Positions 13,580-30,258 of a stretch of 64,000 nucleotides of DNA are shown piece after piece. Position numbers and translations under genes: made by a program. The stretch lies in IMG/VR virus record IMGVR_UViG_3300010883_028422, positions 71,426-135,425 of that record; one strand, given 5' to 3'. Origin of the DNA: a virus. The number at the start of each line of letters is the position of its first letter. Within the stretch, counting starts at the first letter, position 1. The notes beneath the pieces were generated by a model. It worked only from the letters and a program-made list of their open reading frames with translations. It made no database searches and had not been told where the DNA came from.

Positions 13580-14454
13580 GAGTTTTATGCATTGTTGATT
13601 CTTACAGGTGGGCCCTATATAATAGAGCTATTAATTTAAAAAAACATTTTCAAAATTATAATTTTGATATTATTCATTTTGAAAAAATTGAATCAGTTAA
13701 TTTTAATAATTATGATGTAATATATATTTTAAATTGGCCAATTTGGCCATTTGTGAAGCATAAGGTTAGTAGAAGTCGGAGGTATAGGTTGGTGACAACT
13801 GTTTGTAGCCATGTTGGTCGTTCCCACGCAAGAGATATGGGGCGTATATTTAATAACTTTGATAAGATAAGCACATCTAATGACTTCTTATATGAAGAAT
13901 TTAAGCCTGTTTATAAGAGCAAGGTAATAAACGCCCCATTCGGAGTGGATGGTGATTTATTTGTTAAAAAAACTATGCCTTCGAATTATAATTATATATT
14001 TGGATGGGTAGGCAACCCAGATAGATCTGTAAAAAGGTTTAATGATATAAAAGAGGTGTTTGGCAACCTTGGTGATAAGTACAGATTAAAGGTAGCAACT
14101 AATAAGAGCAGGTTTGGTAGAGCTAAAATGGTTGATTTTTATAATTCTGTAGGTACAGTTATATGCTTTAGTGATAGCGAAGGAACTCCGAACCCCATGC
14201 TTGAGGCTGCAGCCTGTGGCCGGGCTATAATATCAACTAGAGTTGGTTGTGTCCCGAGTCTTTGTAAGGGGTTGGGCGTAAATATATTTGTAAAAAATGC
14301 TTCAGATCTTAAAAGTAAAATTATTAGTTATAGCGCAAGTCCAAAGGGAATAAACTTGATTGGAAGCTCTTTGGATAAAATAGCGCACGATGAGTGGTCT
14401 TGGAGAGATAGGGCTGTTGAATTCGATAAGCTATTTAAAGGTGGTCGGACATGA
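13576..14454 (+). CDS. GT4-like glycosyltransferase
   Basis: PFGVD, GWVGN..KR, SEGTPNPMLEAAACGRAIISTRVG. Confidence 0.85.
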   Translation: MRVLCIVDSYRWALYNRAINLKKHFQNYNFDIIHFEKIESVNFNNYDVIYILNWPIWPFVKHKVSRSRRYRLVTTVCSHVGRSHARDMGRIFNNFDKISTSNDFLYEEFKPVYKSKVINAPFGVDGDLFVKKTMPSNYNYIFGWVGNPDRSVKRFNDIKEVFGNLGDKYRLKVATNKSRFGRAKMVDFYNSVGTVICFSDSEGTPNPMLEAAACGRAIISTRVGCVPSLCKGLGVNIFVKNASDLKSKIISYSASPKGINLIGSSLDKIAHDEWSWRDRAVEFDKLFKGGRT

Positions 14455-15578
14455 AAATAGGCCTATTACGCCCACCCGCTGGGATTGGCGGGGCAGAAGC
14501 TACAATGATAGAGTTATATCAAACGCTCAAGGAGCATGGAGAGGATGCCTGGATAGCTTTTGATTCGAGCAAGAAGGGCATATTTGCTGATTTTATAAAC
14601 AAGGATCTGTTTGAGAAAAAATTTGAAAGATTGTCTGGATTGAATATATCAAAAGAACAGTTTTCTGAAGAATATGTTTTAAAAAACATTATAGATTCAG
14701 ATGCGCTTATTCTTTTGCAATATAGAGCTTTTCCCGAAAGAATTCGCACTAAAGTAAAAAGTTCTAAGGCCGATGTGTACATATATGTTCCTGGGAAAAA
14801 TACACCCCATGTGACCGTTCCAATGGAGGATGGGCTAAAAGTTAAGGCTTTTTTGTTTAATTCAAAAGAAACTCTAAAATATCATTTGAATATAAAGTAT
14901 TCAAAAGACCCTTATGCGGATGGGTTGATAAAGAAGAAGTTTAGGCATGCCCACCCGCCCTTATTTTTGGGGAATTATACAGAGGTTAACAAAGTAGACT
15001 ACAAGACTTATAGGTTTCAGCATTTTAAAATAAAGAAAAGTGAGTTCTCCATTGGAGTCGTGGGGAGAATCCAGCCGTCAAAGCGCCCATTTGAAGCTTT
15101 AGATATATTTAAAAAATTAGAAAAACATTATAATTATGATGCTTTTCCAAGAAAATTATATTTCTATGGGGGAGGGGCCAAAGAGTATGTAGCTGAGGTT
15201 AAGCAATATGCAAAAAAATTAAAAATAGAGCACAAGGTGGTCTTTTGTGGGTTTTCCCCGGATGTACGATTTCGTATAAAATCTATGGATTCTATTTTGC
15301 ATTGTTGTGTAATGGAATCGTTGTCTAGAGGTATACGAGAGGCCATGGTCTTAAAAACACCCGTGGTGGCGTATGATGGGTTTGGCAATAGGAGCTTGCT
15401 AGGGGGGCAGTCTGGGCGCCTTCTCTATTCTAACGCTGATCAAGCGTCCATAATCTTGTTGAAAATCGGAACAAGTGGCAAAGTTAAGAGGCAGTTCTCT
15501 ACTTCAGTTTATAATGATATTATAAATATAGAAAAAAAACTTGGAAGAAATTACTTGGATCTTTTATATGAAAAATAA
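14451..15578 (+). CDS. GT4-like glycosyltransferase
   Basis: GIGGAE, VGRIQPSKR, ESLSRGIREAM..TPVVA. Confidence 0.85.
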   Translation: MKIGLLRPPAGIGGAEATMIELYQTLKEHGEDAWIAFDSSKKGIFADFINKDLFEKKFERLSGLNISKEQFSEEYVLKNIIDSDALILLQYRAFPERIRTKVKSSKADVYIYVPGKNTPHVTVPMEDGLKVKAFLFNSKETLKYHLNIKYSKDPYADGLIKKKFRHAHPPLFLGNYTEVNKVDYKTYRFQHFKIKKSEFSIGVVGRIQPSKRPFEALDIFKKLEKHYNYDAFPRKLYFYGGGAKEYVAEVKQYAKKLKIEHKVVFCGFSPDVRFRIKSMDSILHCCVMESLSRGIREAMVLKTPVVAYDGFGNRSLLGGQSGRLLYSNADQASIILLKIGTSGKVKRQFSTSVYNDIINIEKKLGRNYLDLLYEK

Positions 15579-16467
15579 AAAAAGAATATTATTAATCCCT
15601 GACGTGAGGGGCTGGGCCTATGACGTTATAGCGCAAAGTATCATGAAGTTTTCAAAAAAATATGATTATGATATATTTTATGAAGCAAATATTGGCTCAA
15701 AAAAGCTTAGCTTTGAAGGATATGATGCCGTATATTGGTTTTATTGGGGGAATATAGAAAGATATGAAAAGCTAATTGCCGGGTTTGATCGTAATAAAAT
15801 TATAGCTGGAATTCATAGCTATAATTCATGGCAAAAGAGAGGTATGTCATCAGTGGATGTCATTAGACATTGCAAAAGGTATGCAAAAATCGCAGTTCCT
15901 TCATATACTTTGGCAAAAGATTTGAACATTCCGTCCCGCCACGTTGTTCACTCTGGGTATAGATCGAGAATATTTAAGCCACTTGGAACCAAAGAGGGAG
16001 GGCCGTTTATGTGGGTTGGAAATACAAGTTCCGCAAATCATGGAAGAATAAAGGGGTATGACTCTGTAATAAGGCCTTTATTTGAGAGTCGAAAGGATAT
16101 TTCACTTATAACTCAAACAAGAGATCGTGCAATCAAAAATTATAAAATGCCAGAATTTTACAAGAGAGGCTCGTATTTAATTTGCGCTTCACAAAGTGAG
16201 GGTGGCCCACTACCTGTTTTGGAAGCGCTGGCGTGCGGGATCCCAGTTATAACAACAGATGTTGGCTGGTGTAAATATTTAATAAAGGACGGAGAGAACG
16301 GATATAAGTTTGATGGAACTCCGGCGGATCTTTCGAGAAAAATAGATAAAATTATGAAAAAAAATTACAAAGAAATGTCGTTGTCTGCCGCTAAAAGCGT
16401 TAGGGGGTATTCGTGGAAAAAGATCATAGGGCAGCACGAAAGAATGTTTGGATTGGTTGCAAAATAA
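15568..16467 (+). CDS. GT4-like glycosyltransferase
   Basis: WVGN..KG, SEGGPLPVLEALACGIPVITTDVG, DGENG. Likely start is ATG 15568. Confidence 0.87.
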   Translation: MKNKKRILLIPDVRGWAYDVIAQSIMKFSKKYDYDIFYEANIGSKKLSFEGYDAVYWFYWGNIERYEKLIAGFDRNKIIAGIHSYNSWQKRGMSSVDVIRHCKRYAKIAVPSYTLAKDLNIPSRHVVHSGYRSRIFKPLGTKEGGPFMWVGNTSSANHGRIKGYDSVIRPLFESRKDISLITQTRDRAIKNYKMPEFYKRGSYLICASQSEGGPLPVLEALACGIPVITTDVGWCKYLIKDGENGYKFDGTPADLSRKIDKIMKKNYKEMSLSAAKSVRGYSWKKIIGQHERMFGLVAK

Positions 16468-16583
16468 TGTTTATTTTTGTATATAGTTATGAAAAATATG
16501 GCTCGTTGCGCTCATATATGGGCTTAGGGCGGGTGGCTTATGCGGCCAGAGAGGTTGATGTGATGGTTCGAGATGGCGAATAA
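16467..16583 (+). CDS. Possible 38-aa coupled mini-ORF (MFIFVYSYEKYGSLRSYMGLGRVAYAAREVDVMVRDGE)
   Basis: Its ATG overlaps the upstream stop (TAATG). It fills the gap and overlaps the next gene start. Below the ORF-track cutoff. Confidence 0.35.
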   Translation: MFIFVYSYEKYGSLRSYMGLGRVAYAAREVDVMVRDGE

Positions 16584-17259
16584 GCGTGGCAATGATTTTC
16601 AAAAATTATGGACAAGGGAGGATGGAATGTTTGAATTTAGAATAGATGATGAATTCAAGCACTTTGCTGATCTTCAGATAACGCAACTTGTGGATGACCC
16701 AGAATTTTACCTCAAAATGAGCAGGTCAGAGTATAAGGCTATTAGGAAGCATATAGGAAAGCCTAAGAAGATTTTAGATCTCGGTTGCGGGCTCGGCAGG
16801 ATGTCTGTGTTTTTAAATTATAAATTAAGCCAAGAACATAGGCGCTCTGCGCATTTTATTTTAGCAGATGTGACTAAAGAAAGTGATAAAATTGAATATG
16901 GCTGGGATCCGGATAACTCATATTATAATAATCTTGATCTTACGGCCAAATTCGCACAACTTCATGGCCTCAGTAATTTTAGGACATTTAATCTTTTGAC
17001 TGAAGACTTAAATATACATCATAATATTGACTTAGTCATGTCATATTTGGCGGTAGGATTTCATTACCCCATAGAGCAATATATGAAGACTCTTCTTAAC
17101 ATAACATCTTATCATTGTGTTATGATCTTTGGAGTAAGAAAGGGGCAATATAATTTGGATGATTATAAAAAGCATTTTTCTAGTGTTTTAATAGAAAAAA
17201 ATACTATAGACACAAGAGAGGAGATCTTAGTTTTAAAAGGAAAAAGAAATTGTAGTTAA
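16573..17259 (+). CDS. Class I SAM-dependent methyltransferase
   Basis: Motif I ILDLGCGLGR; acidic residue at the end of beta2 (LADV). Confidence 0.8.
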   Translation: MANKRGNDFQKLWTREDGMFEFRIDDEFKHFADLQITQLVDDPEFYLKMSRSEYKAIRKHIGKPKKILDLGCGLGRMSVFLNYKLSQEHRRSAHFILADVTKESDKIEYGWDPDNSYYNNLDLTAKFAQLHGLSNFRTFNLLTEDLNIHHNIDLVMSYLAVGFHYPIEQYMKTLLNITSYHCVMIFGVRKGQYNLDDYKKHFSSVLIEKNTIDTREEILVLKGKRNCS

Positions 17260-17277
17260 TGTTTAAAGTTATAGATT

Positions 17278-18246
17278 ATGAGTAAAAAGTCAAAATTATA
17301 TAAGAAATCAACTTCGCGTAAGAAGCCAATCTCAACTTCGCGTAAGAAGCCAATCTCAATTTCGCGTAAAAAGTCAACTTCCAGAAGATTAAGGGGAAAT
17401 CACATAGGTATATTGTGTCCGCCAAGATCTGGGTCAACATTGTTATCTTTGATTTTGGGAGCTCATAGTGATATTACAAATTTTGGAGAAAGTCACTGGA
17501 TTGTTAAAGATGTCATTGGTCGGGATGGATGCATTGATAATGGATGCCGGGTTCATGGGAGAGCTTGTTATGTAATAAATAAAATTAAAAAGTCAATGAA
17601 TTCAAATAATCATTTAAGCTTACTATGTAAACACTCAGATACATCTTTTATATGTACATCAAATAAAAGCTGGAAGCTTTATGCGGGTATGGATATTGAC
17701 TTGGTTAATAATAAGTTTATTATCCTGTATAAGCCGCTGGAGGTGTGGGTGGGCTCCTTCATAGGCACAGTGAAAATTAAAAAAATGCCAAAAAATAAAA
17801 TTCGTGCAGTTCAATATTTATTACAAATATATGAGGATTATTATAATGAAATATTTAATTTAATAGAAAGCGGAGTTATAAAGAATGATCAATATATTGT
17901 TGTTAATTACATGTCTTTTGCAAAGTCTCCAAAATTAGTTATGAAGGATATTTGTAATTTTTTAAAAATACCATATCAAGGCAATATGTTATTATTTAAT
18001 GATTATTTTATATCCAAGGATCCGAACCAGCACCCAATAGGTGGTAATTATAACACTTATTGCCCTAAGGCACAGATTAATTCTTCGGTTATTACAGATA
18101 GATACAAAAAAGATTTTAACAATATATATATGGAGGATAAGCATGTTGGTATCCTTGGAGAGAGTTTGATTAATTTAATAAAAAAAAATAAAAGATATAA
18201 ATTTATAATTAATAAATTAATATCATTAAATAGTGTTAGAGGCTAG
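17278..18246 (+). CDS. Sulfotransferase (PAPS-dependent) with basic repetitive N-terminal extension
   Basis: PAPS-loop-like PPRSGSTLL..ILG.H, FGE, later YMSFAKSP..VMKDICNFL. Confidence 0.78.
   Translation: MSKKSKLYKKSTSRKKPISTSRKKPISISRKKSTSRRLRGNHIGILCPPRSGSTLLSLILGAHSDITNFGESHWIVKDVIGRDGCIDNGCRVHGRACYVINKIKKSMNSNNHLSLLCKHSDTSFICTSNKSWKLYAGMDIDLVNNKFIILYKPLEVWVGSFIGTVKIKKMPKNKIRAVQYLLQIYEDYYNEIFNLIESGVIKNDQYIVVNYMSFAKSPKLVMKDICNFLKIPYQGNMLLFNDYFISKDPNQHPIGGNYNTYCPKAQINSSVITDRYKKDFNNIYMEDKHVGILGESLINLIKKNKRYKFIINKLISLNSVRG
17308..17382 (+). repeat. 24-bp tandem repeat TCAACTTCGCGTAAGAAGCCAATC (2 exact copies plus degenerate partial copies) encoding STSRKKPI
   Basis: Read directly at 17308-17331 and 17332-17355, then partial copies. 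Confidence 0.93.
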
Positions 18247-18248
18247 TT

Positions 18249-18899
18249 ATGAATAAAAAAGACAAAGAAAAAATAGTAACTTTTTGGAATGTTGGCTCGT
18301 TAGAAGAGGCGAAATATGATAGGGTTTCCACAAGAAAGGAAGAGAGAAAGGCTGTTAATGCTTTTGATGCTTCAGTTGTTAACTCTTTGATTACAGATCA
18401 TATTTTAAAACATAAAAGAAATATTACAAAGAAAGATAGAGTTTTGGACTTTGGGTGCGGTGTAGGAAGAATCCTCAAGGGATTTCATAAGTTTGAATCA
18501 CAAGTTTATGGAACAGATATTTCTGAGAACATGTTATCTTTCTGCAAAGAAGAATTGGGCAGTTTTAAAGTTAATTTAAAAAAATGCAATGTTGGAAGTG
18601 TTCCCTTTGGGGATGATTTTTTTGATATAATTTATTCATTTCATGTTCTTCAGCATATTGCAACAAAAAAGCTTTTGATAAATACTTTGCGTGAAATTTA
18701 CAGAACACAAAAGCCGGGCGGAATAGCTGTTTTGCATTTTATAAGAAAAGTTTCAGAAAGCGATAAAGAATTTGGTGGATTTGCCGGATTTAGACCAAGC
18801 AGGGATACTGCGGTGAAAATTTGTAAGAAAATAGGGTACGAGCTGATAGACATTGACGCAGTAGAGGGTGGGGCCTTTATATTGCATTTGCGAAAGTAA
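18249..18899 (+). CDS. Class I SAM-dependent methyltransferase (Methyltransf_11-like)
   Basis: VLDFGCGVGR, GTDISENML, PFGDDFFDIIYS..VLQHI, KPGG. Confidence 0.9.
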   Translation: MNKKDKEKIVTFWNVGSLEEAKYDRVSTRKEERKAVNAFDASVVNSLITDHILKHKRNITKKDRVLDFGCGVGRILKGFHKFESQVYGTDISENMLSFCKEELGSFKVNLKKCNVGSVPFGDDFFDIIYSFHVLQHIATKKLLINTLREIYRTQKPGGIAVLHFIRKVSESDKEFGGFAGFRPSRDTAVKICKKIGYELIDIDAVEGGAFILHLRK

Positions 18900-18914
18900 A
18901 GCTGTGAGGTGGAT

Positions 18915-18992
18915 GTGAAATTAAATTTAGGTAGTGCCAGGCAAAGATTTGAGGGTCTTAAGGGCATAGACCATAGGAAGATAGTAAAATAA
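18915..18992 (+). pseudogene. 25-codon remnant resembling the N-terminus of a KLNLGCG-type methyltransferase
   Basis: GAGGTGG RBS, GTG start, translation MKLNLGSARQRFEGLKGIDHRKIVK*, stop overlapping the next ATG (TAATG). Confidence 0.45.
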
Positions 18993-19717
18993 TGAAGCTA
19001 ATTTTGGTATTTACGACAGGAAGAAGCGGCACTGCCTTTTTATCACAGGCTTTTGGCGGGGCAAGGTTTCAAAAAAAGAAGATCCATCAGGCAGTAGGTG
19101 CTGATGCCCTAGTCACTCATGAGGGTTGGGGCGGAATTCCGGTTTCGAAGCTTAAGGGCCAAAATGATCTCTCAAGTCATAGCTCTGCCAAGATAGTTGA
19201 TAAATATTTAAATAACATGATTATTAAGTCAAAGAGTGAATATCCTATGGCAGAAAAATATTTAGTTACTGACCATAGAGTTGGGCGATATTGCATACCG
19301 TCAATAGAGAGTACCAATATAGATTATCAGGTTATTAGATTATTTAGAGATCATAAAGATGTCGCAAGCTCTTTTTTGAGGAGGGTGAGGAAAAGGAGGT
19401 CCGAATACACTAAGGCTGAATTTTTAAAGTTTTATAACGAAATTTGGAGTCATAGTTTTTATCAACCAAATGATGAGTTTGTTATTAATAAAATTTCAAA
19501 TGATATATGGGATAATATAAGCATGTATGATAAATTTTTATGGTATTCTAAAGAGGTTGATGCACAATGGTCTGAGGTTAAAAAGATACTTCCTAGAAAC
19601 AAGTATCTAGAGGTAACTTTTGATGAAATTATTAAGCCAGTTGGGCTTAACAAAGTAATGAGATTTATAGAGATTCCTTGGTCAAAAAAATGGGCTGAAA
19701 TAAGGGCAAATGGGTGA
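18992..19717 (+). CDS. Sulfotransferase-like protein
   Basis: N-terminal FTTGRSGTAFL (PAPS loop), LFRDHKDVASS, YLEVTFDEI. Confidence 0.7.
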   Translation: MKLILVFTTGRSGTAFLSQAFGGARFQKKKIHQAVGADALVTHEGWGGIPVSKLKGQNDLSSHSSAKIVDKYLNNMIIKSKSEYPMAEKYLVTDHRVGRYCIPSIESTNIDYQVIRLFRDHKDVASSFLRRVRKRRSEYTKAEFLKFYNEIWSHSFYQPNDEFVINKISNDIWDNISMYDKFLWYSKEVDAQWSEVKKILPRNKYLEVTFDEIIKPVGLNKVMRFIEIPWSKKWAEIRANG

Positions 19718-19744
19718 TGCAGTGTTTTGGATTTGGTGTTTGAT

Positions 19745-20572
19745 ATGATTATAGCGCAGATGGGCAATGGGTTTGTTGGTAGTGCATTGCATAAGTCTTT
19801 TAAGTTAAATGGCATAACTACAATTATTTATGACAAGTTTCAAAAGATAGGATCGGCAAGCTCCGTTTTAGACTCTGAAATTCTATTCTTGTGCCTCCCC
19901 ACTCCATTCATTAAAGACAAAGGCTTTGATCTTTCCGCTATAGAGGAGAATCTATTGTTTTTAAAAGAGAATAGGTATGGTGGACTTTGTGTGATTAAGT
20001 CTACAGTGGAGATCGGAACGACAAAAGCACTTGCAGAGAGGTATTCCTTGAATATTGCTCATAATCCAGAATTTTTAACAGAAAGAACGGCGTTTGAAGA
20101 TTTTCATAACCAAGACCATATTGTTTTGGGAAAGTCATCAGATTCTGGGCTTTTTGATTCTTTAATTTTATTTTATAAAGATCTTTACCCAAATTCTAGA
20201 ATTTCTGTATGTTCATCCGATGAATCTGAGGCGATGAAGATTTTTAGAAATTGTTTTTATGCACAAAAAGTCATGATATTTAACGAATTTTACTTTTTAT
20301 GCAATAAGCTTGGAATGAATTATGATAGGGTTAGAGATTTGATGCTTTGTGATTGGCTTGGAGAGATGCATACCATAGTGCCTGGTCCGGACGGAGGGGT
20401 TGGCTACTCTGGGCATTGCTTTCCAAAGGATACGGAGGCTTTGTTGCTTCAGATGAAGAATAATGACTCGGCACATAAGGTTTTAGAGGCGGCTATAAAT
20501 GAGCGAAATGAGATAAGGCCGGAGATGGTAAATATTATAGAGGAGTCAGCGGGGTTTGCAGATGGGGATTGA
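19745..20572 (+). CDS. UDP-glucose/GDP-mannose dehydrogenase family, short form lacking the usual C-terminal domain
   Basis: GNGFVG, IKSTV, HNPEFLTE, E.MK...N, catalytic GHCFPKD; only ~275 aa. Confidence 0.9.
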   Translation: MIIAQMGNGFVGSALHKSFKLNGITTIIYDKFQKIGSASSVLDSEILFLCLPTPFIKDKGFDLSAIEENLLFLKENRYGGLCVIKSTVEIGTTKALAERYSLNIAHNPEFLTERTAFEDFHNQDHIVLGKSSDSGLFDSLILFYKDLYPNSRISVCSSDESEAMKIFRNCFYAQKVMIFNEFYFLCNKLGMNYDRVRDLMLCDWLGEMHTIVPGPDGGVGYSGHCFPKDTEALLLQMKNNDSAHKVLEAAINERNEIRPEMVNIIEESAGFADGD

Positions 20573-21503
20573 TGCAAAAACAATTTTAGTTACAGGTTCG
20601 GCCGGGTTTATAGGGGGCCACTTGACGGATGAGCTTTTAAGGCTTGGGTGTAGGGTTGTTGGTGTTGATAATATGAGGTCTGGACTTAGCAGCACGATGA
20701 ACCTGCATATTTTAAATAAAAATTTTATACCAAGGCATATCGACATAAGAGATGAGTCTGTGGAGGGCATTTTTGAAGAATTTTCTCCAGATTTAGTCTT
20801 TCATTTGGCCGCAATACCCGGGGTTACGCCATCGGTTATTGATCCAATTTTGTCAAATGATGTAAATATAAATGGAACACTGAATATGTTATATCTGTCT
20901 CATAACTATAATGTAAAAAGATTTATTTTTTCATCATCATCATCTGTATATGGTGGTTCTGATATTTTGCCAACGCCAGAAGAGACTCCGCTAGATCCGA
21001 AGTCTCCATACGCATTACAAAAGAAGGTTGGTGAAGAGTATTGCAAGCTTTTTTCAGAGATTTATCAGCTTGATACGGTTTGCTTGAGATACTTCAATGT
21101 TTTTGGCCCAAGGCAGAGGTCGGACTCTGCGTATGCTGCGGTTATTTCTGCATTTTGTAATAGTGTAAAAAACGAAAAAAATCCAGTAATATATGGCGAT
21201 GGAGAGCAGTCTAGGGACTTTTGTTTTGTAGATAATGTTGTTTCTGCGAATATTTTGGCGGCGACTTCTGATTTTGAATTCTCCGGAGATGCATTCAATG
21301 TTGGTTGCGGAGGAAGCATCTCTGTAAACTCAATTTGCAGCTCATTAGAGACAAAAGAGCCTGTTTTTAAGGATAAGCGCCCAGGTGATGTCATGTGCTC
21401 TCAGGCAGATATAACAAAAGCTTGTAAAATGTTAAAGTATAAGCCCTTAGTTTCTTATGAAGAAGGACTAAAGGCTACATTGGATTGGCATCTAAACAGT
21501 TAA
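20556..21503 (+). CDS. NAD-dependent nucleotide-sugar epimerase (WbpP/GalE-like SDR)
   Basis: VTGSAGFIG, HLAA, SSSSVYG, YxxxK (YALQK), RYFNVFGPRQ, GDG.QSRDF. Confidence 0.92.
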   Translation: MQMGIDAKTILVTGSAGFIGGHLTDELLRLGCRVVGVDNMRSGLSSTMNLHILNKNFIPRHIDIRDESVEGIFEEFSPDLVFHLAAIPGVTPSVIDPILSNDVNINGTLNMLYLSHNYNVKRFIFSSSSSVYGGSDILPTPEETPLDPKSPYALQKKVGEEYCKLFSEIYQLDTVCLRYFNVFGPRQRSDSAYAAVISAFCNSVKNEKNPVIYGDGEQSRDFCFVDNVVSANILAATSDFEFSGDAFNVGCGGSISVNSICSSLETKEPVFKDKRPGDVMCSQADITKACKMLKYKPLVSYEEGLKATLDWHLNS

Positions 21504-21535
21504 TAATTATAATTAAATATAGAGGGCATTGTGAT

Positions 21536-23365
21536 ATGTGCGGTATATTTGGTTATATAGGTGGCGAAGATTCCCATCAGAGGGTTAAGCTGGGCCTTGA
21601 GGGGCTTGCCTATAGGGGCTATGACTCGGCCGGAATAGTGTCGGTTGTAAATAATAAATTTGAAGAAAACAAGTGTGTTGGCCACCCAGAAGAGTTGTTG
21701 GATTTAGATATTGAATCTAACCTGTCAATAGGGCATAATAGATGGGCAACGCATGGCGCTCCAAGCGCCTTAAATGCTCATCCGCACTTCTCAAATGACG
21801 GCAAGATAGCGCTTGTTCACAACGGAATAATAGAAAATTATTATGAGATAAGTGATTTTTTAGAAAAAAATAATTTTTCTTTTTATTCAGATACTGATAC
21901 TGAGTTAATCCCCAACCTCATTCAATATTATATGGGTAATTTAAATATTGTTGATGCGACTATAGCCGCAATGAATGATATCAGGGGGGCTTATGCGATG
22001 GCCTTTATCCACATAAACCACCCAGAGAAGATAATTATAGCGAGATTGGGCTCTCCGGTTTGTGTTGGCAGAGACGCGTCTGGTGGCATATACGTATCTT
22101 CTGATGCAGGCGCTTTACCGCAGTCTGTAAAGGAGGTTATGGACATAGGTGACGGCAAGCTGGTGGTGGCGGACTCTTGCGGCAGCGTTGTAGTTAAAAA
22201 TCTTGAAGGAAATACCTTAGAGCATAAATTTGAAGAGGCTGAGATAAAAGAAAAAAATTATACAATTGGTAGCTTTAATCATTTTTTAGAAAAAGAGATA
22301 TTTGAGCAGCCTATTTATCTTAGAAACGCTATTAGCGGCAGGGTAAATATTGATAAAAAAATAATAAAGCTTAGCGGCATATCAGGCCATATTCAGAGTA
22401 TATTAGATGCCGAAGAGATAATCTATACTGGATGTGGATCGGCATATTATGCTGCGTGTATTGGCGCACAGTCAATGGAGAGTGTTGCGAGAAAGAGAGT
22501 TAGGGTTATGCCGGCAGGAGACCTGAAGTATTATAATCCAGTTATAAATGAAAAAACTGTTTTGATAGCGGTATCTCAATCTGGAGAGACGGCTGATACT
22601 ATAGGCTGTATAAAGATGGCGAAAAATCATGGCGCAACTACATTGGGAGTTGTAAATGTTGTAAATTCAACTATATCAAGAATGGTTGATTCTGGGATAT
22701 ATATTCGCGCAGGAGAAGAGGTTAGCGTTGCATCTACAAAATCTGTTATCAATCAGATGATGGCAATGATATCCTTGGCGGTGTTGGTTGGATCAAAAAG
22801 AGATTTATCAGAATTAGAATATGAGTCTTTGATATCAGAATTGCATTGTTTGCCAAATATGATTGACAAAGTTTTATTAGAAAGCGGTATGATTGAAGAG
22901 ATTGCAAAAAAATATGCAAATTATAGCAATATGCTGTGCATTGGCCGAGGAGCGTTAGAGCATATTGCAAAAGAAGCTGCTTTAAAGATAAAAGAGATAA
23001 GCTATATTCATGCAGAAGGATATTCTGCAGCAGAATTAAAGCACGGACCTCTTGCGCTCATTGATGAGAATATGCCGACACTAGCAATGGTTGCGAGCGG
23101 ACCGATGGAGGGGAAGATGCTGAGCAATATAAGGGAGATTAAAAGCAGAGGTGGCGCGGTAATAGGGGTTGTCAGCTCTGATGTTTCAAAAGAAACCAGG
23201 AGGGTTTTAGACGAAATTATAGAGGTCCCTGCATGCTCAAACAAGCTCCTTGAGCCATTATTATTTTTGGTTCCATGCCAGCTATTTTCTTATTTTCTAG
23301 CAAAAGAAAACGGACGCTGCATAGACCGTCCAAGAAACTTGGCAAAAAGTGTTACGGTTGAGTAA
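21536..23365 (+). CDS. glmS: Glutamine--fructose-6-phosphate aminotransferase
   Basis: MCGIFG N-terminal nucleophile start at 21536, YRGYDSAG, HNRWATHG, SQSGETADT, ELKHGP, PRNLAKSVTVE. Confidence 0.98.
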   Translation: MCGIFGYIGGEDSHQRVKLGLEGLAYRGYDSAGIVSVVNNKFEENKCVGHPEELLDLDIESNLSIGHNRWATHGAPSALNAHPHFSNDGKIALVHNGIIENYYEISDFLEKNNFSFYSDTDTELIPNLIQYYMGNLNIVDATIAAMNDIRGAYAMAFIHINHPEKIIIARLGSPVCVGRDASGGIYVSSDAGALPQSVKEVMDIGDGKLVVADSCGSVVVKNLEGNTLEHKFEEAEIKEKNYTIGSFNHFLEKEIFEQPIYLRNAISGRVNIDKKIIKLSGISGHIQSILDAEEIIYTGCGSAYYAACIGAQSMESVARKRVRVMPAGDLKYYNPVINEKTVLIAVSQSGETADTIGCIKMAKNHGATTLGVVNVVNSTISRMVDSGIYIRAGEEVSVASTKSVINQMMAMISLAVLVGSKRDLSELEYESLISELHCLPNMIDKVLLESGMIEEIAKKYANYSNMLCIGRGALEHIAKEAALKIKEISYIHAEGYSAAELKHGPLALIDENMPTLAMVASGPMEGKMLSNIREIKSRGGAVIGVVSSDVSKETRRVLDEIIEVPACSNKLLEPLLFLVPCQLFSYFLAKENGRCIDRPRNLAKSVTVE

Positions 23366-23390
23366 AATACAAACTTAGTGGAGGCGTTAT

Positions 23391-24386
23391 ATGCTTACGG
23401 CAGTTATAACTGGAGTTGCAGGCCAAGATGGTAGTTATTTAGCAGAGTTATTGTTGGATAAAGGCTACAAGGTGGTTGGAATATCTAGGCGAAAAAGTGT
23501 TAATGATGGATTGCAGAATTTAGAACACAATGTGTTGGGTAATGATAATTTTACACTTTTGAATGGAGATATAAAGGATTCAACTTTTATATATAGGTGC
23601 GTTGAGGAATACAGGCCAGATGAGTGGTATAACTTAGCTGCACAATCTAATGTTGGACATTCTTTTAAAGAACCAGTTGAAACATTCGGAACTAACGCAT
23701 TAGCTGTAGTTATTCAGCTTGAAGCCATAAGATCCCTGTCTCCATCGACAAAGTTTTATCAAGCATCTACCAGCGAGCTATGGGGAGGGCTCAGCTGCCC
23801 CAAAACAGGATATAGCGAGAGCATGAGGTTTTATCCAAGATCTCCATATGGCGTATCCAAGTTATCAGCGTATTGGTCAGTGGTCAATCATAGAGATGCG
23901 TATGGCTTGTTTGCATGTAGCGGTATACTCCATAATCACAGCAGCCCAAGGAGGGGTTTGGACTTCGCAACAAGAAAAATAACCAGAGGCGTTGCGGAGA
24001 TTACTCTTGGGCTGAAGGATAAGATAAGAATGGGTGATTTGAGCGCATTTCGTGATGAGGGACATTCCAAGGACTATGTTGAGGCTATGCATCTTATGTT
24101 GCAAAATGATAGCCCAAAGGATTATGTTATTTCCACGGGAACCGGAGCAACTATAGAGGATATGTTTAGGCATGTCGCATCTTTTGCAGGTTTAAAATTT
24201 GAAGACCTCTATGAGGTAGATGAAAGATTTATGAGGCCGTCTGAAGTGCCGTTTTTGCTTGGTAATTCATCGTTAGCAAAGAGCGAGCTTGGATGGAGTC
24301 CAAAATATACATGGAAAAACCTATTAGAAGAGATGTTCGAGAGTGATTTGTTGGTAATTTCAAATGAAAGATGGAAAAATAGTTAA
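23391..24386 (+). CDS. gmd: GDP-mannose 4,6-dehydratase
   Basis: ITGVAGQDGSYLAE, YNLAAQS, YQASTSE, PRSPYGVSK, GILHNHSSPRRG, TRKIT. GGAGG RBS. Confidence 0.96.
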   Translation: MLTAVITGVAGQDGSYLAELLLDKGYKVVGISRRKSVNDGLQNLEHNVLGNDNFTLLNGDIKDSTFIYRCVEEYRPDEWYNLAAQSNVGHSFKEPVETFGTNALAVVIQLEAIRSLSPSTKFYQASTSELWGGLSCPKTGYSESMRFYPRSPYGVSKLSAYWSVVNHRDAYGLFACSGILHNHSSPRRGLDFATRKITRGVAEITLGLKDKIRMGDLSAFRDEGHSKDYVEAMHLMLQNDSPKDYVISTGTGATIEDMFRHVASFAGLKFEDLYEVDERFMRPSEVPFLLGNSSLAKSELGWSPKYTWKNLLEEMFESDLLVISNERWKNS

Positions 24387-25326
24387 AAAAATAGTAATAA
24401 TAGCGTTTAATTTTGGATTTGCAGGAAGATATGTTAACGGTCCAGGGATATGTCTTTATAATTTATATAATATCCTAAAAAAACACACTTCTGTTGACGT
24501 TAAGATATTTACAAAAATGCATGCGCATGGGCAATTTAATTCAGACGATATATTTTCGATAGATGATAAAGAATATCTGTCAGAATGCATAAAAAATTGT
24601 GATATTCTGCATCATTGGAGTGGCCTTGCAAATATTTATTCTAATATAATAAAATTTGCTAATTTTTGTAATAAAAAAGTTATAATTGGTCCAAATGTAA
24701 TTGACACTGTGGACTTTTTAAAAGAAAAGAAGTTTTTGTCAAAAATCAACTATGATAGGATTTTATTGGTAAATAATAGGATAAAATACAGAGCTTTAGA
24801 TTTTTATGGCATAGATAGCGACCTATTAAGCATATTTATGGTCGGACCAGACTTAGACTTGTGGTCGCCAAGTGACATATGTAATGAAAAGATTTTGTGG
24901 AAAGGCAACTCGGCACAAGGCGTTAAGGGTGTATCTTTTGGGGTCGAGGTGTCTAAAAATTTGCCACAATATGATTTCGATTTCGTTGGACGCCCAACCC
25001 CATATAATTATTTTAAGCACATAGGGCCCGCAAAGGAGTATAAACTATTCTTTAGCACGTCAATGAGTGAGACGATGGGCATGGGGTTGGCAGAACAGTG
25101 GGCTGCGGGTATACCATCTATAACACACCCAAAGATTTATCTTCATGGTGAAAATTATATCACGGGCATAATAACGGATAGGTCCGTAAGCGCTTATTGT
25201 GATGCAATTGTTGAAATAATGGAGAATCCTGTTTTGTATAAAAATTTATCTTTAGGCGCAAGAAAGTATATGGAAGACAACTTTTCACATGAGTCAATTG
25301 CGTCAAAATATCTTTCTTTATTGTAA
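24364..25326 (+). CDS. GT4-like glycosyltransferase
   Basis: GVDL-like GPDLD, WKG...KG, SETMGMGLAEQWAAGIP. Confidence 0.75.
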   Translation: MKDGKIVKKIVIIAFNFGFAGRYVNGPGICLYNLYNILKKHTSVDVKIFTKMHAHGQFNSDDIFSIDDKEYLSECIKNCDILHHWSGLANIYSNIIKFANFCNKKVIIGPNVIDTVDFLKEKKFLSKINYDRILLVNNRIKYRALDFYGIDSDLLSIFMVGPDLDLWSPSDICNEKILWKGNSAQGVKGVSFGVEVSKNLPQYDFDFVGRPTPYNYFKHIGPAKEYKLFFSTSMSETMGMGLAEQWAAGIPSITHPKIYLHGENYITGIITDRSVSAYCDAIVEIMENPVLYKNLSLGARKYMEDNFSHESIASKYLSLL

Positions 25327-25338
25327 TTGAGCTTAAAT

Positions 25339-26046
25339 ATGTTAGTTGATGTTATAATTCCTGTATATAATCCAGGTCATTATTTGGATGAGGCCTTAAA
25401 AAGCTGTATAAAACAGACATATAGTGATTATAAAATAACTGTAGTTGATGATTGCTCTACTGAAAATATAATGCCGATCATCTCCAAGTATAGAGGTATT
25501 TCTTATATAAGAAACACTGAGAATATGGGGCCGGCTGCCTCCAGAAATGTTGGAATTAAGAATTCTAACGGAAGCCTTATAAGCCTTTTGGATGCAGATG
25601 ATGTTTGGGACCCAAATAAGTTATTATATAGCGTTAGAGAGTTTAAGAAGGACGGCGGCATAGGCATGACCTGTGGTAACTACAGAATAATGACAAGCTC
25701 TAGAGTTTTAAAGCCATTTTATAAAAAAAGTATAGCCATAAATCATAGGATGCTGATGAAGAACAATTATGTCGCATCAGGCTCTGTTACGGTAAAACGA
25801 AGCGTTATTGATGACGTTGGATTGTTCAATAAGGATTATTGGATTGCAGAGGATTATGATTTATGGTTAAGAATAAGCGAAAAGTATCCTATAAAGTATA
25901 TACATAAAATTCTATATTATTATAGGATAGTGAAAGGCGGCGGATCACTAACTCAGAGGGACGATGTGCAGGAGGCGCATGAATTTAATTTATCAAAGAT
26001 AAAAAAAGAGTCAGCCTGGAGGGTTAGGGAGAGTGAAGACAGCTAG
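25339..26046 (+). CDS. Soluble GT-A glycosyltransferase (GT2)
   Basis: VIIPVYN, VVDDCSTE, N.GPAASRN.G, LDADD, EDYDLWLR. No transmembrane segment. Confidence 0.93.
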   Translation: MLVDVIIPVYNPGHYLDEALKSCIKQTYSDYKITVVDDCSTENIMPIISKYRGISYIRNTENMGPAASRNVGIKNSNGSLISLLDADDVWDPNKLLYSVREFKKDGGIGMTCGNYRIMTSSRVLKPFYKKSIAINHRMLMKNNYVASGSVTVKRSVIDDVGLFNKDYWIAEDYDLWLRISEKYPIKYIHKILYYYRIVKGGGSLTQRDDVQEAHEFNLSKIKKESAWRVRESEDS

Positions 26047-26266
26047 CGTAAGCCGCAAAAGACATATTTTAAAAACAATAACCTGGAGAGTGATTGGAAC
26101 TTTAGATACAATGCTTCTTGGATGGATTGTAACCGGGAGTGCACTAATCGGTCTAAAAATCAGTGCTATTGAGTTAGTCACAAAAATGTTATTGTATTAT
26201 TTTCATGAAAGATTATGGTATCGTTTTAATTTTGGAATAAAAAATAGGGATAAACTGAATGGTTAA
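26033..26266 (+). CDS. DUF2061-like small membrane protein
   Basis: RHILKTITWRVIGTLDT...K..LYYFHER.W pattern. Confidence 0.8.
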   Translation: MKTASVSRKRHILKTITWRVIGTLDTMLLGWIVTGSALIGLKISAIELVTKMLLYYFHERLWYRFNFGIKNRDKLNG

Positions 26267-28754
26267 AAAATTTGATATATCTTCTGTAAAAAATAAAAGA
26301 ATTTTAATAAAAACTTTTATGTTTGAATCAGGACTTTGGTATTTGGCAAAATCACTTGGCGATATATTGTCTAAAAATAATTATGTACATTATATTCCAA
26401 AGGCTAGATATACAGATTCAGGAAGAAGGTTTTCGAGGTCATATCCTGAGCCAAACAATAAGGATGAGTTTGTAGATATAAACTTTGATGAATTTTCTGC
26501 AGAAAACAGCGTTGAGGGGCAGATATCCAAATGTATAGACAAATATAATATTGACTTGGTTATATCATTCGAAACTCTAATGGAGTGTGGCCAGTGGGTT
26601 GTCAACTGCAAGATAAAGCATGACGTAGAAATATATGACGTTCCAATGCCAGAGTGGACAACAAAAAGGTTCGTAGAGTCCGATGCATATAAATCTTTTG
26701 ATAAAATAATATGCCTGACGGACTCGTGCAGTGATATCTTTAAAGATTATAATAACGTGGTTAGATCTAATTGGCTTTATATGAAAAAGAAGGAGGTGGA
26801 GAAGTCAGATGATGTTGTTAGGTTTTATCACCCAGCATCATTGAATCTAAAATTTTCTACCAAAAATACATCTAATGTTATAGACGCCTTCCTGTCATTT
26901 TTAAATACAAGTGATTTACAGACACCTGTTGAGCTAATATTGACTGGAGGCATTTCGGATGAACATTCGGACAGATGCAATGAGCATGATAATATATTAA
27001 TAATTAATAATTATATTGATAGACAAGGAGTTTTTGATATATTGGAAAAAACAAATTGCCTTATCTCCCCCTCAAAAAGAGAGGGGCTTGGACTATCTTT
27101 TTTTGAGGCAAAAGCATTTGGATGTAGTATTATAACAACAAATTATCCGCCGATGAGTGATTATGGCGACTATCTGTGTAAGGTCTCCAGCTTGGTTTCT
27201 GATGAAAAAATTATACCACTGGCAGTCGTTAAGTCTGAAGACATCTTGAATCAATTAGAAAAATATTATGAGGAATTTATAATGGCAAAAAATAGCAAAA
27301 CTACTGCAAAAGAAGTAGAGGTTAAACCGAAAAGGAAGACGAAAAAGGCTGTCGAAAAAGAAAATCAGGATTTGCTTTCTGCGTTTTCAGCGAAAACTTC
27401 TTCTGATGACACGCTTGACGCAAGTGAAGATAACACCTCTGCTGAAAGTGTAGACATGGATAATGCCGTATTAGAAAAGTTAAAAAGCAAAATGGGCAAA
27501 AATACAACCGTTAGGAGTGATGCTATGCCGAACCTTATTGATGAAAGAGCTGTAGCCATAAATATGGCTGTTATCGGAGTTGGTCAGGCCGGCTCGAGGC
27601 TTGCAGAGGAATTTTATTTAAATGGATATGATGTTGGAGTAATTAATACATCTGCGCAAGATTTAGAGTTTATAAATGTAACGCCAACGCAAAAGCTTCT
27701 TATCGAGGGAAGCCTAGGCGGAACCGGTAAGGATTTGGATCTCGGAAGGGATCTTTTTAGTGAAAGTGAGGAGTTGATCTATAACTTTGTATCTGAAGTT
27801 TCGGACGGAAACGACATGGTTTATCTTGCCGTATCTGGCGGCGGTGGAACCGGGTCGTCTTCTGTTGATTTGTTAGTTCCAATGCTATTTAACCTTGGGC
27901 TTCCAGTTGGTGTTATATATGTATTGCCAAAGGCAACTGAGGATGCAAAGTCTAAAAAGAATTCAATTGAAACGTTATCTAGATTGGCACGAATGACATC
28001 TGATAGCTTGGTTTCAAACCTTATAGTTGTAGACAATGCTAGAATTGAGCAAATTTATGCAAATTTGAGTCAATCTCAATTTTGGAAGTCTGCAAATAAG
28101 GCGATTATAGAGCCGCTTCATTTGTTTAATACGCTTACAGCATCAGCATCGGATCACACATCTATGGACCCGAGTGATTTTGGAAAAATAATATCATGTG
28201 GTGATTGCTCAATATACGGCGTTATGGAGGTTGATAATTATATGGAGGAGACCGCGCTTGCAGAGGCCGTTATAGACAGCCTTGGAACAAGCATGCTCGC
28301 GGAAGGCTTTGATGTTGCTCAAACACGAGTTGGTGGCGTAATCATCACCGGGCCAAGAGAGGCCCTTGATAGGCTTCCGGCTATAAATATAAATTATTGT
28401 TTCCATATGATATCTGAGCAAACCAATGGGGCGTCTATATTCCAGGGCATATACAGCTCTGGAAGCACGTCTGATGGGGCTAATGATGCAGTTAAGATAT
28501 ACTCCTGGTTTGCCGGGCTGGGGCTGCCCAAGGACAGGGTTGACAGCTTAAAGAGAGAGAGCGCGATGCAATCAGAAATTGCTGCAGAAAAAGAGAAAAA
28601 TCGGGCGTCAGCTATGGTTCTAGATCTCGGTGAGGATAAGGTTAACTCCGTTACGGAAGAGGTTAGCAGAAAGATTAAAAAGAAGAAGTCTGGGTTTAAC
28701 AAGCTCCAGAGAACCTCCAGAAAGTCTATTATAGATAAAAGAAGAAGGCGATAA
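26259..28754 (+). CDS. In-frame fusion: GT4-like glycosyltransferase (aa ~1-341), low-complexity linker, tubulin/FtsZ-family GTPase and basic tail
   Basis: GT part: PSKREGLGLSFFEAKAFG. Tubulin part: VIGVGQAGSRLA, INT..QDL, GGTGKD, GGGGTGS signature, MDPSDF T7-like loop. No stop between the two parts. Confidence 0.88.
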   Translation: MVKKFDISSVKNKRILIKTFMFESGLWYLAKSLGDILSKNNYVHYIPKARYTDSGRRFSRSYPEPNNKDEFVDINFDEFSAENSVEGQISKCIDKYNIDLVISFETLMECGQWVVNCKIKHDVEIYDVPMPEWTTKRFVESDAYKSFDKIICLTDSCSDIFKDYNNVVRSNWLYMKKKEVEKSDDVVRFYHPASLNLKFSTKNTSNVIDAFLSFLNTSDLQTPVELILTGGISDEHSDRCNEHDNILIINNYIDRQGVFDILEKTNCLISPSKREGLGLSFFEAKAFGCSIITTNYPPMSDYGDYLCKVSSLVSDEKIIPLAVVKSEDILNQLEKYYEEFIMAKNSKTTAKEVEVKPKRKTKKAVEKENQDLLSAFSAKTSSDDTLDASEDNTSAESVDMDNAVLEKLKSKMGKNTTVRSDAMPNLIDERAVAINMAVIGVGQAGSRLAEEFYLNGYDVGVINTSAQDLEFINVTPTQKLLIEGSLGGTGKDLDLGRDLFSESEELIYNFVSEVSDGNDMVYLAVSGGGGTGSSSVDLLVPMLFNLGLPVGVIYVLPKATEDAKSKKNSIETLSRLARMTSDSLVSNLIVVDNARIEQIYANLSQSQFWKSANKAIIEPLHLFNTLTASASDHTSMDPSDFGKIISCGDCSIYGVMEVDNYMEETALAEAVIDSLGTSMLAEGFDVAQTRVGGVIITGPREALDRLPAININYCFHMISEQTNGASIFQGIYSSGSTSDGANDAVKIYSWFAGLGLPKDRVDSLKRESAMQSEIAAEKEKNRASAMVLDLGEDKVNSVTEEVSRKIKKKKSGFNKLQRTSRKSIIDKRRRR
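27270..27284 (+). promoter_or_regulatory. Internal RBS (GAGGA, 27270-27274) and in-frame ATG (27282) for a possible stand-alone tubulin
   Basis: TATGAGGAATTTATAATG; spacing of 7 nt; (27282-26259)/3=341, so in frame. Confidence 0.6.
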
Positions 28755-28788
28755 ACATTGCCTCTCTTTGAATGGATAAGAGATTTTT

Positions 28789-30258
28789 ATGATAACAATT
28801 ATATTAGGAAATGTTAATTGTAGAATTGTTGGTAATATAGAAGAACACATTAGACTAGAGCTCGACGGCCAGATGAGTTATCGTATGGCTGGCTATGAGT
28901 TTATGATGTATAAAAGCAATAATTTTGGTGGTTGGGACGGAAGGTTTAGGCTTTTCCAAAAAAATAAAACTTTTCCAATTGGGCTTCTATCTTTAGCAAA
29001 ATCTATTTTAGATAAGAATTCTATTGATTATGTAGTGCAAGACAATAGAGATAGTGTTTTGTATGGCAGCCCGTTAGATATGCAGTCAGATGATTTTATC
29101 CCAAGGGATTATCAGCTAGATATTTTAGAGAAAGCACTTGAATTTGGCAGCGGAATAGTCAGGTCTGCTACGGGGTCTGGCAAGACTGCTGTGATAGCAA
29201 TGTTGTGTGCGAAGTATAATGTATCAACAATTGTTTATGTTATTGGCATAGAACTACTTTATCAAATGAAAGATACAATAGAGGAGCTATACGGAATAGA
29301 GTGCGGCCTTGTTGGCGGTGGGCATTGTGACCCATCAAAGAAGGTAACTATAATGACAGTTTGGAGCGCAATGTCAGCGTTCGATAAGAAGTGCAAGGTT
29401 ATAGATAACGATTCAACTCAAGATTCTGCTAGAAAGAACAAAAAATTAAATAAAAGGTTAATTGTTGAAAAGGTTAGGGGCGCAGAGCTGATTGTGATTG
29501 ACGAGTGCCAGTACGCGGCATCAGAAACTGTGCAGTTTTTGCACAAAGAGAGCAGGTCTGCGAGGCATAGATTTTTGTTTTCTGGAACGCCGTGGCGGGA
29601 CTCTGGTGATGACATTCTTATTGAGTCAGTTGGTGGGCCAAAATTTTATGATTTAAATGCAACAAAGCTTATAGACAGCGGATATTTAGTCCCTCCGGAG
29701 ATACATTTTATAAACGTTCCGTCGCTAAGAGGCGTTGGTTCCAAATATCATGATGTATATAAAAATTATATTGTTGAAAATAAAGAACGAAATGATTTGA
29801 TATGTAATGCTGCGAAAAAATTGGTTAAATCTGGCAAAAAAGTTCTTATTTTGGTAGTAAGGGTTGGTCATGGAAATATTCTCGCTGAAGAGCTTGGTGA
29901 TGAGTTTAGAGTCGAGTTTTTAGACGGTAAAAGGAGCGGGGCTGATCGTATGAGCGCTATAGACTCTATGAAGAGTGGAGAGCTTGATATACTTGTTGCG
30001 TCAAAGATATTTGATCAGGGTGTTGACATACCAGAGTTAGATGCTCTAATTCTGGCTGGCTCTGGGAAGTCTAGCGGACGAGCGCTTCAGCGGATTGGTA
30101 GGGTCATAAGAACTAACCCCGGAAAGAGCAGGGCTATAGTGGTTGAGTTTTTTGATAATTGCAAGTACCTAAGAGAGCATTCTCTAAAAAGAATAGACAT
30201 ATATAAGAGTGAACCTGGATTTTTAATAAAGCTTCCAGACAATATAAAAATTAAATAA
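28789..30258 (+). CDS. Superfamily 2 helicase (UvsW/DExD-like)
   Basis: ATGSGKT, VIDECQ, FSGTP, FDQGVDIP, QRIGRVIR. Confidence 0.92.
   Translation: MITIILGNVNCRIVGNIEEHIRLELDGQMSYRMAGYEFMMYKSNNFGGWDGRFRLFQKNKTFPIGLLSLAKSILDKNSIDYVVQDNRDSVLYGSPLDMQSDDFIPRDYQLDILEKALEFGSGIVRSATGSGKTAVIAMLCAKYNVSTIVYVIGIELLYQMKDTIEELYGIECGLVGGGHCDPSKKVTIMTVWSAMSAFDKKCKVIDNDSTQDSARKNKKLNKRLIVEKVRGAELIVIDECQYAASETVQFLHKESRSARHRFLFSGTPWRDSGDDILIESVGGPKFYDLNATKLIDSGYLVPPEIHFINVPSLRGVGSKYHDVYKNYIVENKERNDLICNAAKKLVKSGKKVLILVVRVGHGNILAEELGDEFRVEFLDGKRSGADRMSAIDSMKSGELDILVASKIFDQGVDIPELDALILAGSGKSSGRALQRIGRVIRTNPGKSRAIVVEFFDNCKYLREHSLKRIDIYKSEPGFLIKLPDNIKIK

Follow-up and report, generated by a model that had tools for sequence, protein, structure and literature searches.

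A glycosyltransferase (GT) and a TubZ-like tubulin are encoded as one polypeptide in the 64,000-nucleotide stretch of an uncultured virus that we analyzed (positions 71,426 to 135,425 of IMG/VR record IMGVR_UViG_3300010883_028422; hereafter, the window). The GT-like part (residues 1 to 341) and the tubulin (residues 342 to 831) share one open reading frame (ORF) with no stop codon between them, and comparison with related contigs indicates that this fusion is genuine and long-lived in a family of uncultured marine huge phages. The explanation that we favor as a whole, with moderate confidence, is that such a long-lived fusion yields two products, free tubulin and GT-tubulin, and that the fused form co-assembles with the free one, placing the GT on the filament.

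The fused reading frame and its junction

Pfam placed three domains in the 831-residue ORF (Table 1): Glycos_transf_1 at residues 201 to 301 (31 to 33 bits; cutoff, 26.4), Tubulin (PF00091) at residues 436 to 600 (47.5 bits; cutoff, 33), and TubZ-like_C (PF22453) at residues 624 to 758 (29 to 30.6 bits; cutoff, 26). The single ORF and these matches bear out the claim, made in a first-pass annotation that used the letters of the window without database searches, that no stop separates a GT4-like domain from the tubulin. The annotation had also placed an in-frame ATG at 27282 with a GAGGA motif 7 nucleotides (nt) upstream, and these coordinates are correct; the sequence across the junction is tat tat GAG GAA ttt ata ATG gca. 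The G+C content was 0.33 in the GT half (26259 to 27281), 0.42 in the tubulin half (27282 to 28754), and 0.37 in the whole window; the gap between the halves may come from expression level or amino acid makeup.

An open junction in one genome could stem from an assembly or sequencing error or from a stop loss confined to that genome. A 1-nt error in the run of five A's at 27258 to 27262 would indeed put the GT in the frame that ends at the TAA of 27280 to 27282, which overlaps the tubulin ATG. The first-pass annotation had dismissed a local frameshift on the grounds that this +1 frame is closed 8 codons upstream. The closure is there (TAG at 27256 to 27258), but a 1-nt error within those last 8 codons could still have produced the join, so the closed frame alone cannot exclude an artifact, and it is the independent assemblies that settle the question. 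The protein search retrieved 73 full-length fused clusters (799 to 835 residues; 51 to 92% identity) from JGI, ENA, Logan, Tara, and NCBI assemblies, and scans of viral and metagenome contigs yielded 38 distinct fused DNA junctions, nearly all of them marine (Tara, GOS, and Pacific). The fusion was open in all 75 fused protein clusters, full or partial. The closest relatives, P0002 (92% identity, also 831 residues), L030 (85%), and L031 (83%), have the same open junction, tattatGAGGAAtttataATG being identical in the independent assemblies L030 and L031, and it is likewise open in many more distant relatives. The annotation had proposed looking for a stop near 27280 in related genomes; the nearest ones keep the junction open, so the fusion is not private to this phage, and an artifact is effectively refuted.

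The ratio of nonsynonymous to synonymous substitution rates (dN/dS) was 0.10 to 0.18 in the GT half and 0.01 to 0.04 in the tubulin half, with dS saturated (>1) even in the closest pairs. Both halves are therefore under purifying selection and have long been kept as working proteins while fused. Programmed frameshifting at the junction was rejected, as no conserved slippery site was present among the relatives. An alternative genetic code was also discarded: recoding a stop codon cannot account for the absence of one, and, read with table 11, the window is densely packed with coding sequence.

A conserved internal start

The junction methionine was kept in all 75 fused proteins. Every one of the 38 fused DNA junctions combined an ATG with a Shine-Dalgarno (SD)-like GAGGA, AAGGA, GGAG, or GAGG motif located 7 to 8 nt upstream (4 nt in L006). 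The codon providing the core of the motif was GAG in 21 cases, AAG in 6, and GGA in 3, and these replacements among glutamate, lysine, and glycine preserve the purine run. Where the codon encodes glutamate or lysine, all 27 cases have the form xAG, a form taken by only 48% of the glutamate and lysine codons elsewhere in the same genes. This codon comparison shows, at synonymous sites, selection that maintains both the SD motif and the ATG in every fused gene. The three counts (38/38, 27/27, and 75/75) describe a nested gene, i.e., a conserved in-frame start with a ribosome-binding site inside a longer ORF. Given the conservation of the ATG, the SD motif, and the xAG codons, internal initiation has very probably been retained. 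In L011, the SD motif lies in an intergenic gap, and the GT of that locus ends in ...KKYIGNN, without the E-D pair.

The start of the GT itself is poorly signaled: only 11 of 30 loci have an SD-like 4-mer there. In the window, the GT start has none, and it shares 8 nt with the end of the DUF2061 gene upstream. Free tubulin is probably made from the internal start, in excess. We thus expect a major product, free tubulin of 53.1 kDa, and a minor one, GT-tubulin of 92.5 kDa, computed masses that agree with the species of ~53 and ~92 kDa anticipated in the first-pass annotation. Its suggestion that the internal start could make free tubulin fits both the conservation of ATG and SD motif in all fused genes and the use of this ATG as the normal start in unfused relatives.

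The closest known logic for a fused and a free subunit in one polymer is that of genes 4A and 4B of phage T7, where initiation at an internal in-frame start adds a short isoform to the long one, and both assemble into the same oligomer. Both cases have one ORF with an internal in-frame SD motif and ATG. They differ in that the extra N-terminal part is here a complete, unrelated enzyme, encoded by a separate gene in sister lineages, and in that the products of the fused gene are predicted only.

The tubulin half and its N-terminal extension

Sequence and structure searches place the tubulin half with TubZ and not with PhuZ. The best solved structure in a PDB sequence search was TubZ/RepX of Bacillus cereus (4EI7; E = 8e−19), and the top 10 Foldseek matches were all TubZ proteins (TubZ-Bt, 2XKB, 3J4S, and 2XKA; TubZ-Bc, 4EI7), with target TM values of 0.72 to 0.78. 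TubZ, the tubulin of type III partition systems (Bacillus plasmids pBtoxis and pXO1 and Clostridium phage c-st), is therefore the best match in both sequence and structure, and it shares with the phage protein a TubZ-like_C domain, a long C-terminal helix, a basic tail, and an aligned DNA(R/K) motif. Long C-terminal helices are predicted at tubulin residues 417 to 449 and 454 to 472. The G-box SGGGGTGSSS was invariant in 52 relatives, and so was DNARIE, which probably corresponds to the T7/synergy-loop region; the G-box and the PF00091 match assign the protein to the tubulin/FtsZ superfamily. Unlike TubZ, to which it is about 20 to 22% identical, the phage tubulin has an N-terminal extension of 60 to 100 residues with conserved motifs, is fused to an enzyme, is flanked by a GT and a UvsW-like helicase, and belongs to huge marine phages, not to low-copy-number plasmids or prophages. 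The defining partner of the TubZRC partition systems is also missing from the locus: no TubR-like gene adjoined the tubulin and no helix-turn-helix family was found among its neighbors, although no search for tubC repeats was made.

PhuZ of the nucleus-forming jumbo phages (Chimalliviridae) is likewise phage encoded and provides the model for filaments that position DNA and traffic capsids. No PhuZ structure appeared among the 60 best PDB sequence matches or the 50 best Foldseek matches, and the PhuZ models of BFVD matched only weakly (E of about 1e−12 and 13 to 16% identity, versus 8e−46 for a relative from an uncultured phage). The C-terminal tail of PhuZ is acidic, while that of the phage protein is basic, with an isoelectric point of 12; neither kinship nor an acidic tail thus links it to the PhuZ family. 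Megablast of window positions 25000 to 30000 against GenBank phages gave no match. The sole tblastn match was gp138 of Bacillus phage G (27% identity over 205 residues), a distant protein and the only relative from a cultured phage.

The first-pass annotation called the charged, low-complexity stretch of ~90 residues that follows Met342 a linker. This term has to be revised, as the stretch did not arise with the fusion. The ~94 residues contain two conserved helical motifs, ENxxLxxAF (27360 to 27386) and DxxVLxKLKxK (27456 to 27494), and unfused tubulins, which start at the equivalent methionine, carry the same extension (about 50 to 100 residues) with the same two motifs. The stretch is thus the N-terminal extension of the tubulin itself and predates the fusion.

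A profile search of 1.84 billion representatives returned 308 related clusters at E ≤ 1e−30, a large and unnamed clade of TubZ-like proteins in which the N-terminal extension is conserved. The 150 best matches of this search included no other type of GT-tubulin fusion. The other long relatives were tubulins bearing inteins and one fusion of a tubulin to a PilM/FtsA-type protein. Nine TubZ-like tubulins of 795 to 983 residues (P0156, P0158, P0159, P0188, P0190, P0215, P0221, P0247, and P0257) carry an intein with a LAGLIDADG homing endonuclease, inserted near profile position 170 to 175, around the G-box. P0270 (818 residues) combines a TubZ-like tubulin (residues 5 to 357) with a C-terminal PilM/FtsA-type actin-fold domain (residues 516 to 791).

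The glycosyltransferase half

The AF2 model of the GT half (pLDDT, 93.2; pTM, 0.89) has a GT-B fold, in which a C-terminal helix (residues 326 to 340) reaches up to the junction. Its Foldseek neighbors are the GT of the chlorovirus PBCV NY2A (3OY2), BshA, MshA, PglA, and WbnH. Residues E275, G276, G278, and E283 were invariant across 36 orthologs, fused and unfused. The modeled fold, the Glycos_transf_1 match, and the intact EX7E motif assign the domain to the GT-B/GT4-like class. With the GT4-type retaining enzymes listed above it shares the GT-B fold of two Rossmann domains, the EX7E motif, and the Pfam family, but the identity is only 10 to 16%, and a tubulin at the C terminus is present in the phage protein only. 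No close characterized homolog of the GT was found, all NCBIfam matches being below threshold. A locus search with the GT half alone gave no match, the patterns being too specific; the GT orthologs were recovered via the tubulin.

Origin of the fused state

In related phages, the orthologous GT is a separate ORF directly upstream of an unfused tubulin, and the two genes mostly overlap: the tubulin ATG lies 8, 13, 14, or 23 nt upstream of the GT stop and, in one case, 90 nt downstream of it. The distance between the two states can be a single base. The fused junction of L006 (gaggattttATG) and the unfused junction of L010 (gaggatttttATG) are one T apart. In the unfused locus L068 (300 to 330), the in-frame TAA of the GT directly precedes the tubulin ATG (..GVH*MSEE..), and one substitution would fuse the genes. 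Trees of the tubulin show unfused lineages at the base and a large clade in which most members are fused, with some unfused ones branching inside it.

The ancestral state was thus most plausibly two separate genes. In such an ancestor, the SD motif of the tubulin would have been encoded in the last GT codons, with the tubulin ATG either a few nucleotides upstream of the GT stop or immediately behind it. Loss of that stop, or a 1-nt indel, would then have merged the frames with the join exactly at the tubulin start codon.

Nearly all loci that extended far enough upstream kept the GT next to the tubulin. In the divergent unfused loci L069, L076, and L081, no GT ortholog was present within 2.3 kb upstream, the adjacency having been lost. 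In an outgroup with 37 to 41% identity (L027, 2920 to 5389; L028, 2836 to 6694), the tubulin stands between an NAD-dependent sugar epimerase/dehydratase and a UvsW-like helicase; the order of sugar genes, tubulin, and helicase is therefore older than both the GT adjacency and the fusion.

Possible roles of the tether

In the explanation that we favor, free tubulin would be produced from the strong internal start, and GT-tubulin by ribosomes that start at the weakly signaled, operon-coupled GT start. Free tubulin would form GTP-dependent filaments of the TubZ type, with which the minor fused form would co-assemble through its tubulin part, leaving the GT hanging on the flexible extension of ~90 residues and concentrated on or near the filament. 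N-terminally tagged PhuZ reportedly still assembles when the wild-type protein is present, which makes co-assembly plausible, though it is no test of it. A complex prediction with the tubulin (residues 342 to 831) and the GT (residues 1 to 341) scored 0.00 in a run without controls and speaks neither for nor against binding. The treadmilling of FtsZ, which guides septal peptidoglycan GTs, is a precedent for a tubulin-family filament that spatially organizes glycan-building enzymes, but by analogy only: its link is noncovalent, made via membrane adaptors, and serves the cell wall, whereas the phage link is covalent and cytoplasmic. Overall, we regard a functional tether as possible, although short of probable. 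Its most specific form seems doubtful: an enzyme-bearing cytoskeleton in a virus of bacteria, in which the filaments would be a moving scaffold for the viral glycosylation machinery and sparsely incorporated GT-tubulin would bring the last enzyme of the glycan island to filaments that carry or position virion parts or phage DNA.

The fusion may instead be neutral, tolerated at a module boundary, between the glycan island and the replication block, where a trivial mutation merged two translationally coupled, overlapping genes. The tether would then add nothing: the GT would still be an enzyme, free tubulin would do the cytoskeletal job, and the join would persist only because hardly any mutation could reverse it harmlessly. 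We consider this main and serious rival somewhat unlikely, and yet several observations favor it. The state has toggled repeatedly, the fused P0060 being sister to the unfused L013; single-base events separate fused from unfused junctions; the extension did not change in length after the fusion; and the outgroup tubulin follows a sugar dehydratase and not this GT, so that the adjacency may be inherited synteny. Against neutrality, most lineages of a large clade have stayed fused while their synonymous sites became saturated. A milder argument is that a bulky N-terminal domain on a polymerizing protein, if harmful, would be expected to be selected against. Moreover, no member of the fused clade has an in-frame stop in the variable codon before the ATG, an observation that is not statistically decisive.

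Several results weigh against our preferred explanation. The fused sequences do not form one clade, their monophyly being rejected (approximately unbiased test, P = 0.0013), and the unfused L055 and L058 are nested among fused forms with 98% support. The state must therefore have changed at least twice; beyond this minimum, the number and direction of events are uncertain because of weak resolution deep in the tubulin tree. A fused state that is not obligatory in this sense leaves room for a neutral tether. The avoidance of stops in the spacer was dropped as evidence: one of the two spacer codons upstream of the ATG, that at −1, is alone in looking free to vary, and the rough P value is about 0.03 to 0.15, depending on the number of independent lineages. 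Finally, 16 of 45 likely starts in this phage have an SD-like motif upstream, as do 50 of 359 internal ATGs. With such moderate use of SD motifs, the one found in a single sequence is weak evidence for initiation, and it is the comparative pattern that is strong.

A different role for the adjacency would be that the GT acts on the tubulin, either by glycosylating its Ser/Thr-containing extension or tail or by capping or otherwise regulating the filaments, with the fusion or the tight coupling keeping enzyme and substrate together. The conservation of the gene pair agrees with this idea, and the Foldseek list includes protein-O-glycosylating GT4 enzymes (GtfA/B [5E9T] and TarM) among many others. 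The best structural neighbors, however, are GTs of small molecules or glycans (BshA, MshA, PglA, and WbnH), the GT gene closes an 18-kb glycan island, and the extension has no conserved glycosylation motif besides its two helical motifs, all of which makes modification of the tubulin quite improbable. An error of assembly or sequencing, or a stop loss private to this genome, has a negligible probability in view of the open junctions in independent assemblies.

The first-pass annotation knew of no described GT-tubulin fusion, and our search of the literature, including papers on jumbo phages, megaphages, and the FtsZ family, found none either. The architecture is nevertheless present in databases, unremarked, under automatic JGI names of the type "cell division GTPase FtsZ/glycosyltransferase...". 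To our knowledge, polymers of the tubulin family hardly ever carry a fused enzyme. The fusion described here is natural and widespread among abundant uncultured phages of the ocean, and sister lineages with the split form provide a natural control. If the hybrid does join filaments, a phage cytoskeleton could localize an enzyme, beyond pushing DNA or capsids, and a large glycan island would be linked to intracellular organization. If the tether is neutral, the locus would be a clean case of gene fusion at an overlapping start and stop in which the second gene retains a ribosome-binding site of its own.

Genomic context

Table 1. Features of the GT-tubulin gene and of its neighborhood in the window
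Feature	Position (nt)	Strand	Description	Basis
Fused ORF, ATG start	26259..28754	+	831 aa, 92.5 kDa; stop TAA 28752-28754	ORF listing and sequence
GT-B fold, GT4-like glycosyltransferase domain	26259..27281	+	Residues 1-341	Pfam PF00534/PF13692, AF2 model, Foldseek
EX7E motif	27081..27107	+	E275...E283, REGLGLSFFE	Invariant in 36 fused and unfused orthologs
SD-like GAGGA	27270..27274	+	Within last GT codons (Y-Y-E-E), 7 nt 5' of internal ATG	
In-frame ATG	27282..27284	+	Met342; tubulin start codon in unfused relatives	
Tubulin N-terminal extension	27282..27563	+	94 aa, mostly disordered	Shared with unfused relatives
Tubulin/FtsZ GTPase domain and TubZ-like C-terminal domain	27564..28532	+		Pfam, PDB sequence search, Foldseek
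Tubulin signature G-box	27834..27863	+	SGGGGTGSSS	Sequence; invariant alignment columns
DNARIE	28032..28049	+	Invariant; opposite DNAK of B. cereus TubZ in alignment	
Two long C-terminal helices and very basic tail	28530..28751	+	Last 30 aa, pI (isoelectric point) 12	...SIIDKRRRR conserved
Co-directional glycan synthesis island	8874..26046	+	~17-18 kb; fused GT is its last gene	
DUF2061 small membrane-protein gene	26033..26266	+	77 aa; between GT2 and GT-tubulin genes	
UvsW-like DNA helicase	28789..30258	+	Directly downstream of tubulin	

The source record of 135,425 bp is 24% complete according to CheckV, which suggests a genome of probably several hundred kilobases; related contigs have 316 to 422 kb. 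The glycan synthesis island upstream of the tubulin encodes at least seven GT4-like proteins, a sulfotransferase, a UDP-sugar dehydrogenase, an epimerase, a GlmS-like protein, a GDP-mannose dehydratase, and a GT2. No exporter was found by Pfam among the ORFs of the island that were scanned. The GT2 gene of L002 and similar relatives directly overlaps the fused gene, unlike in the window, where the DUF2061 gene lies between them.

Downstream of the tubulin are genes for the UvsW-like helicase, a DnaB-like helicase, ribonucleotide reductase, and PhoH. The UvsW-like helicase was found 3' of the tubulin in all the loci read, including the outgroup with 37 to 41% identity, either directly or past one inserted gene. 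In L002 (6434 to 7387), and also in L003 to L007 and L021, an N-acetylmuramoyl-L-alanine amidase with a peptidoglycan-binding domain (about 310 to 320 residues) is encoded between the tubulin and the UvsW-like helicase, whereas in the window the two genes follow each other without an amidase gene.

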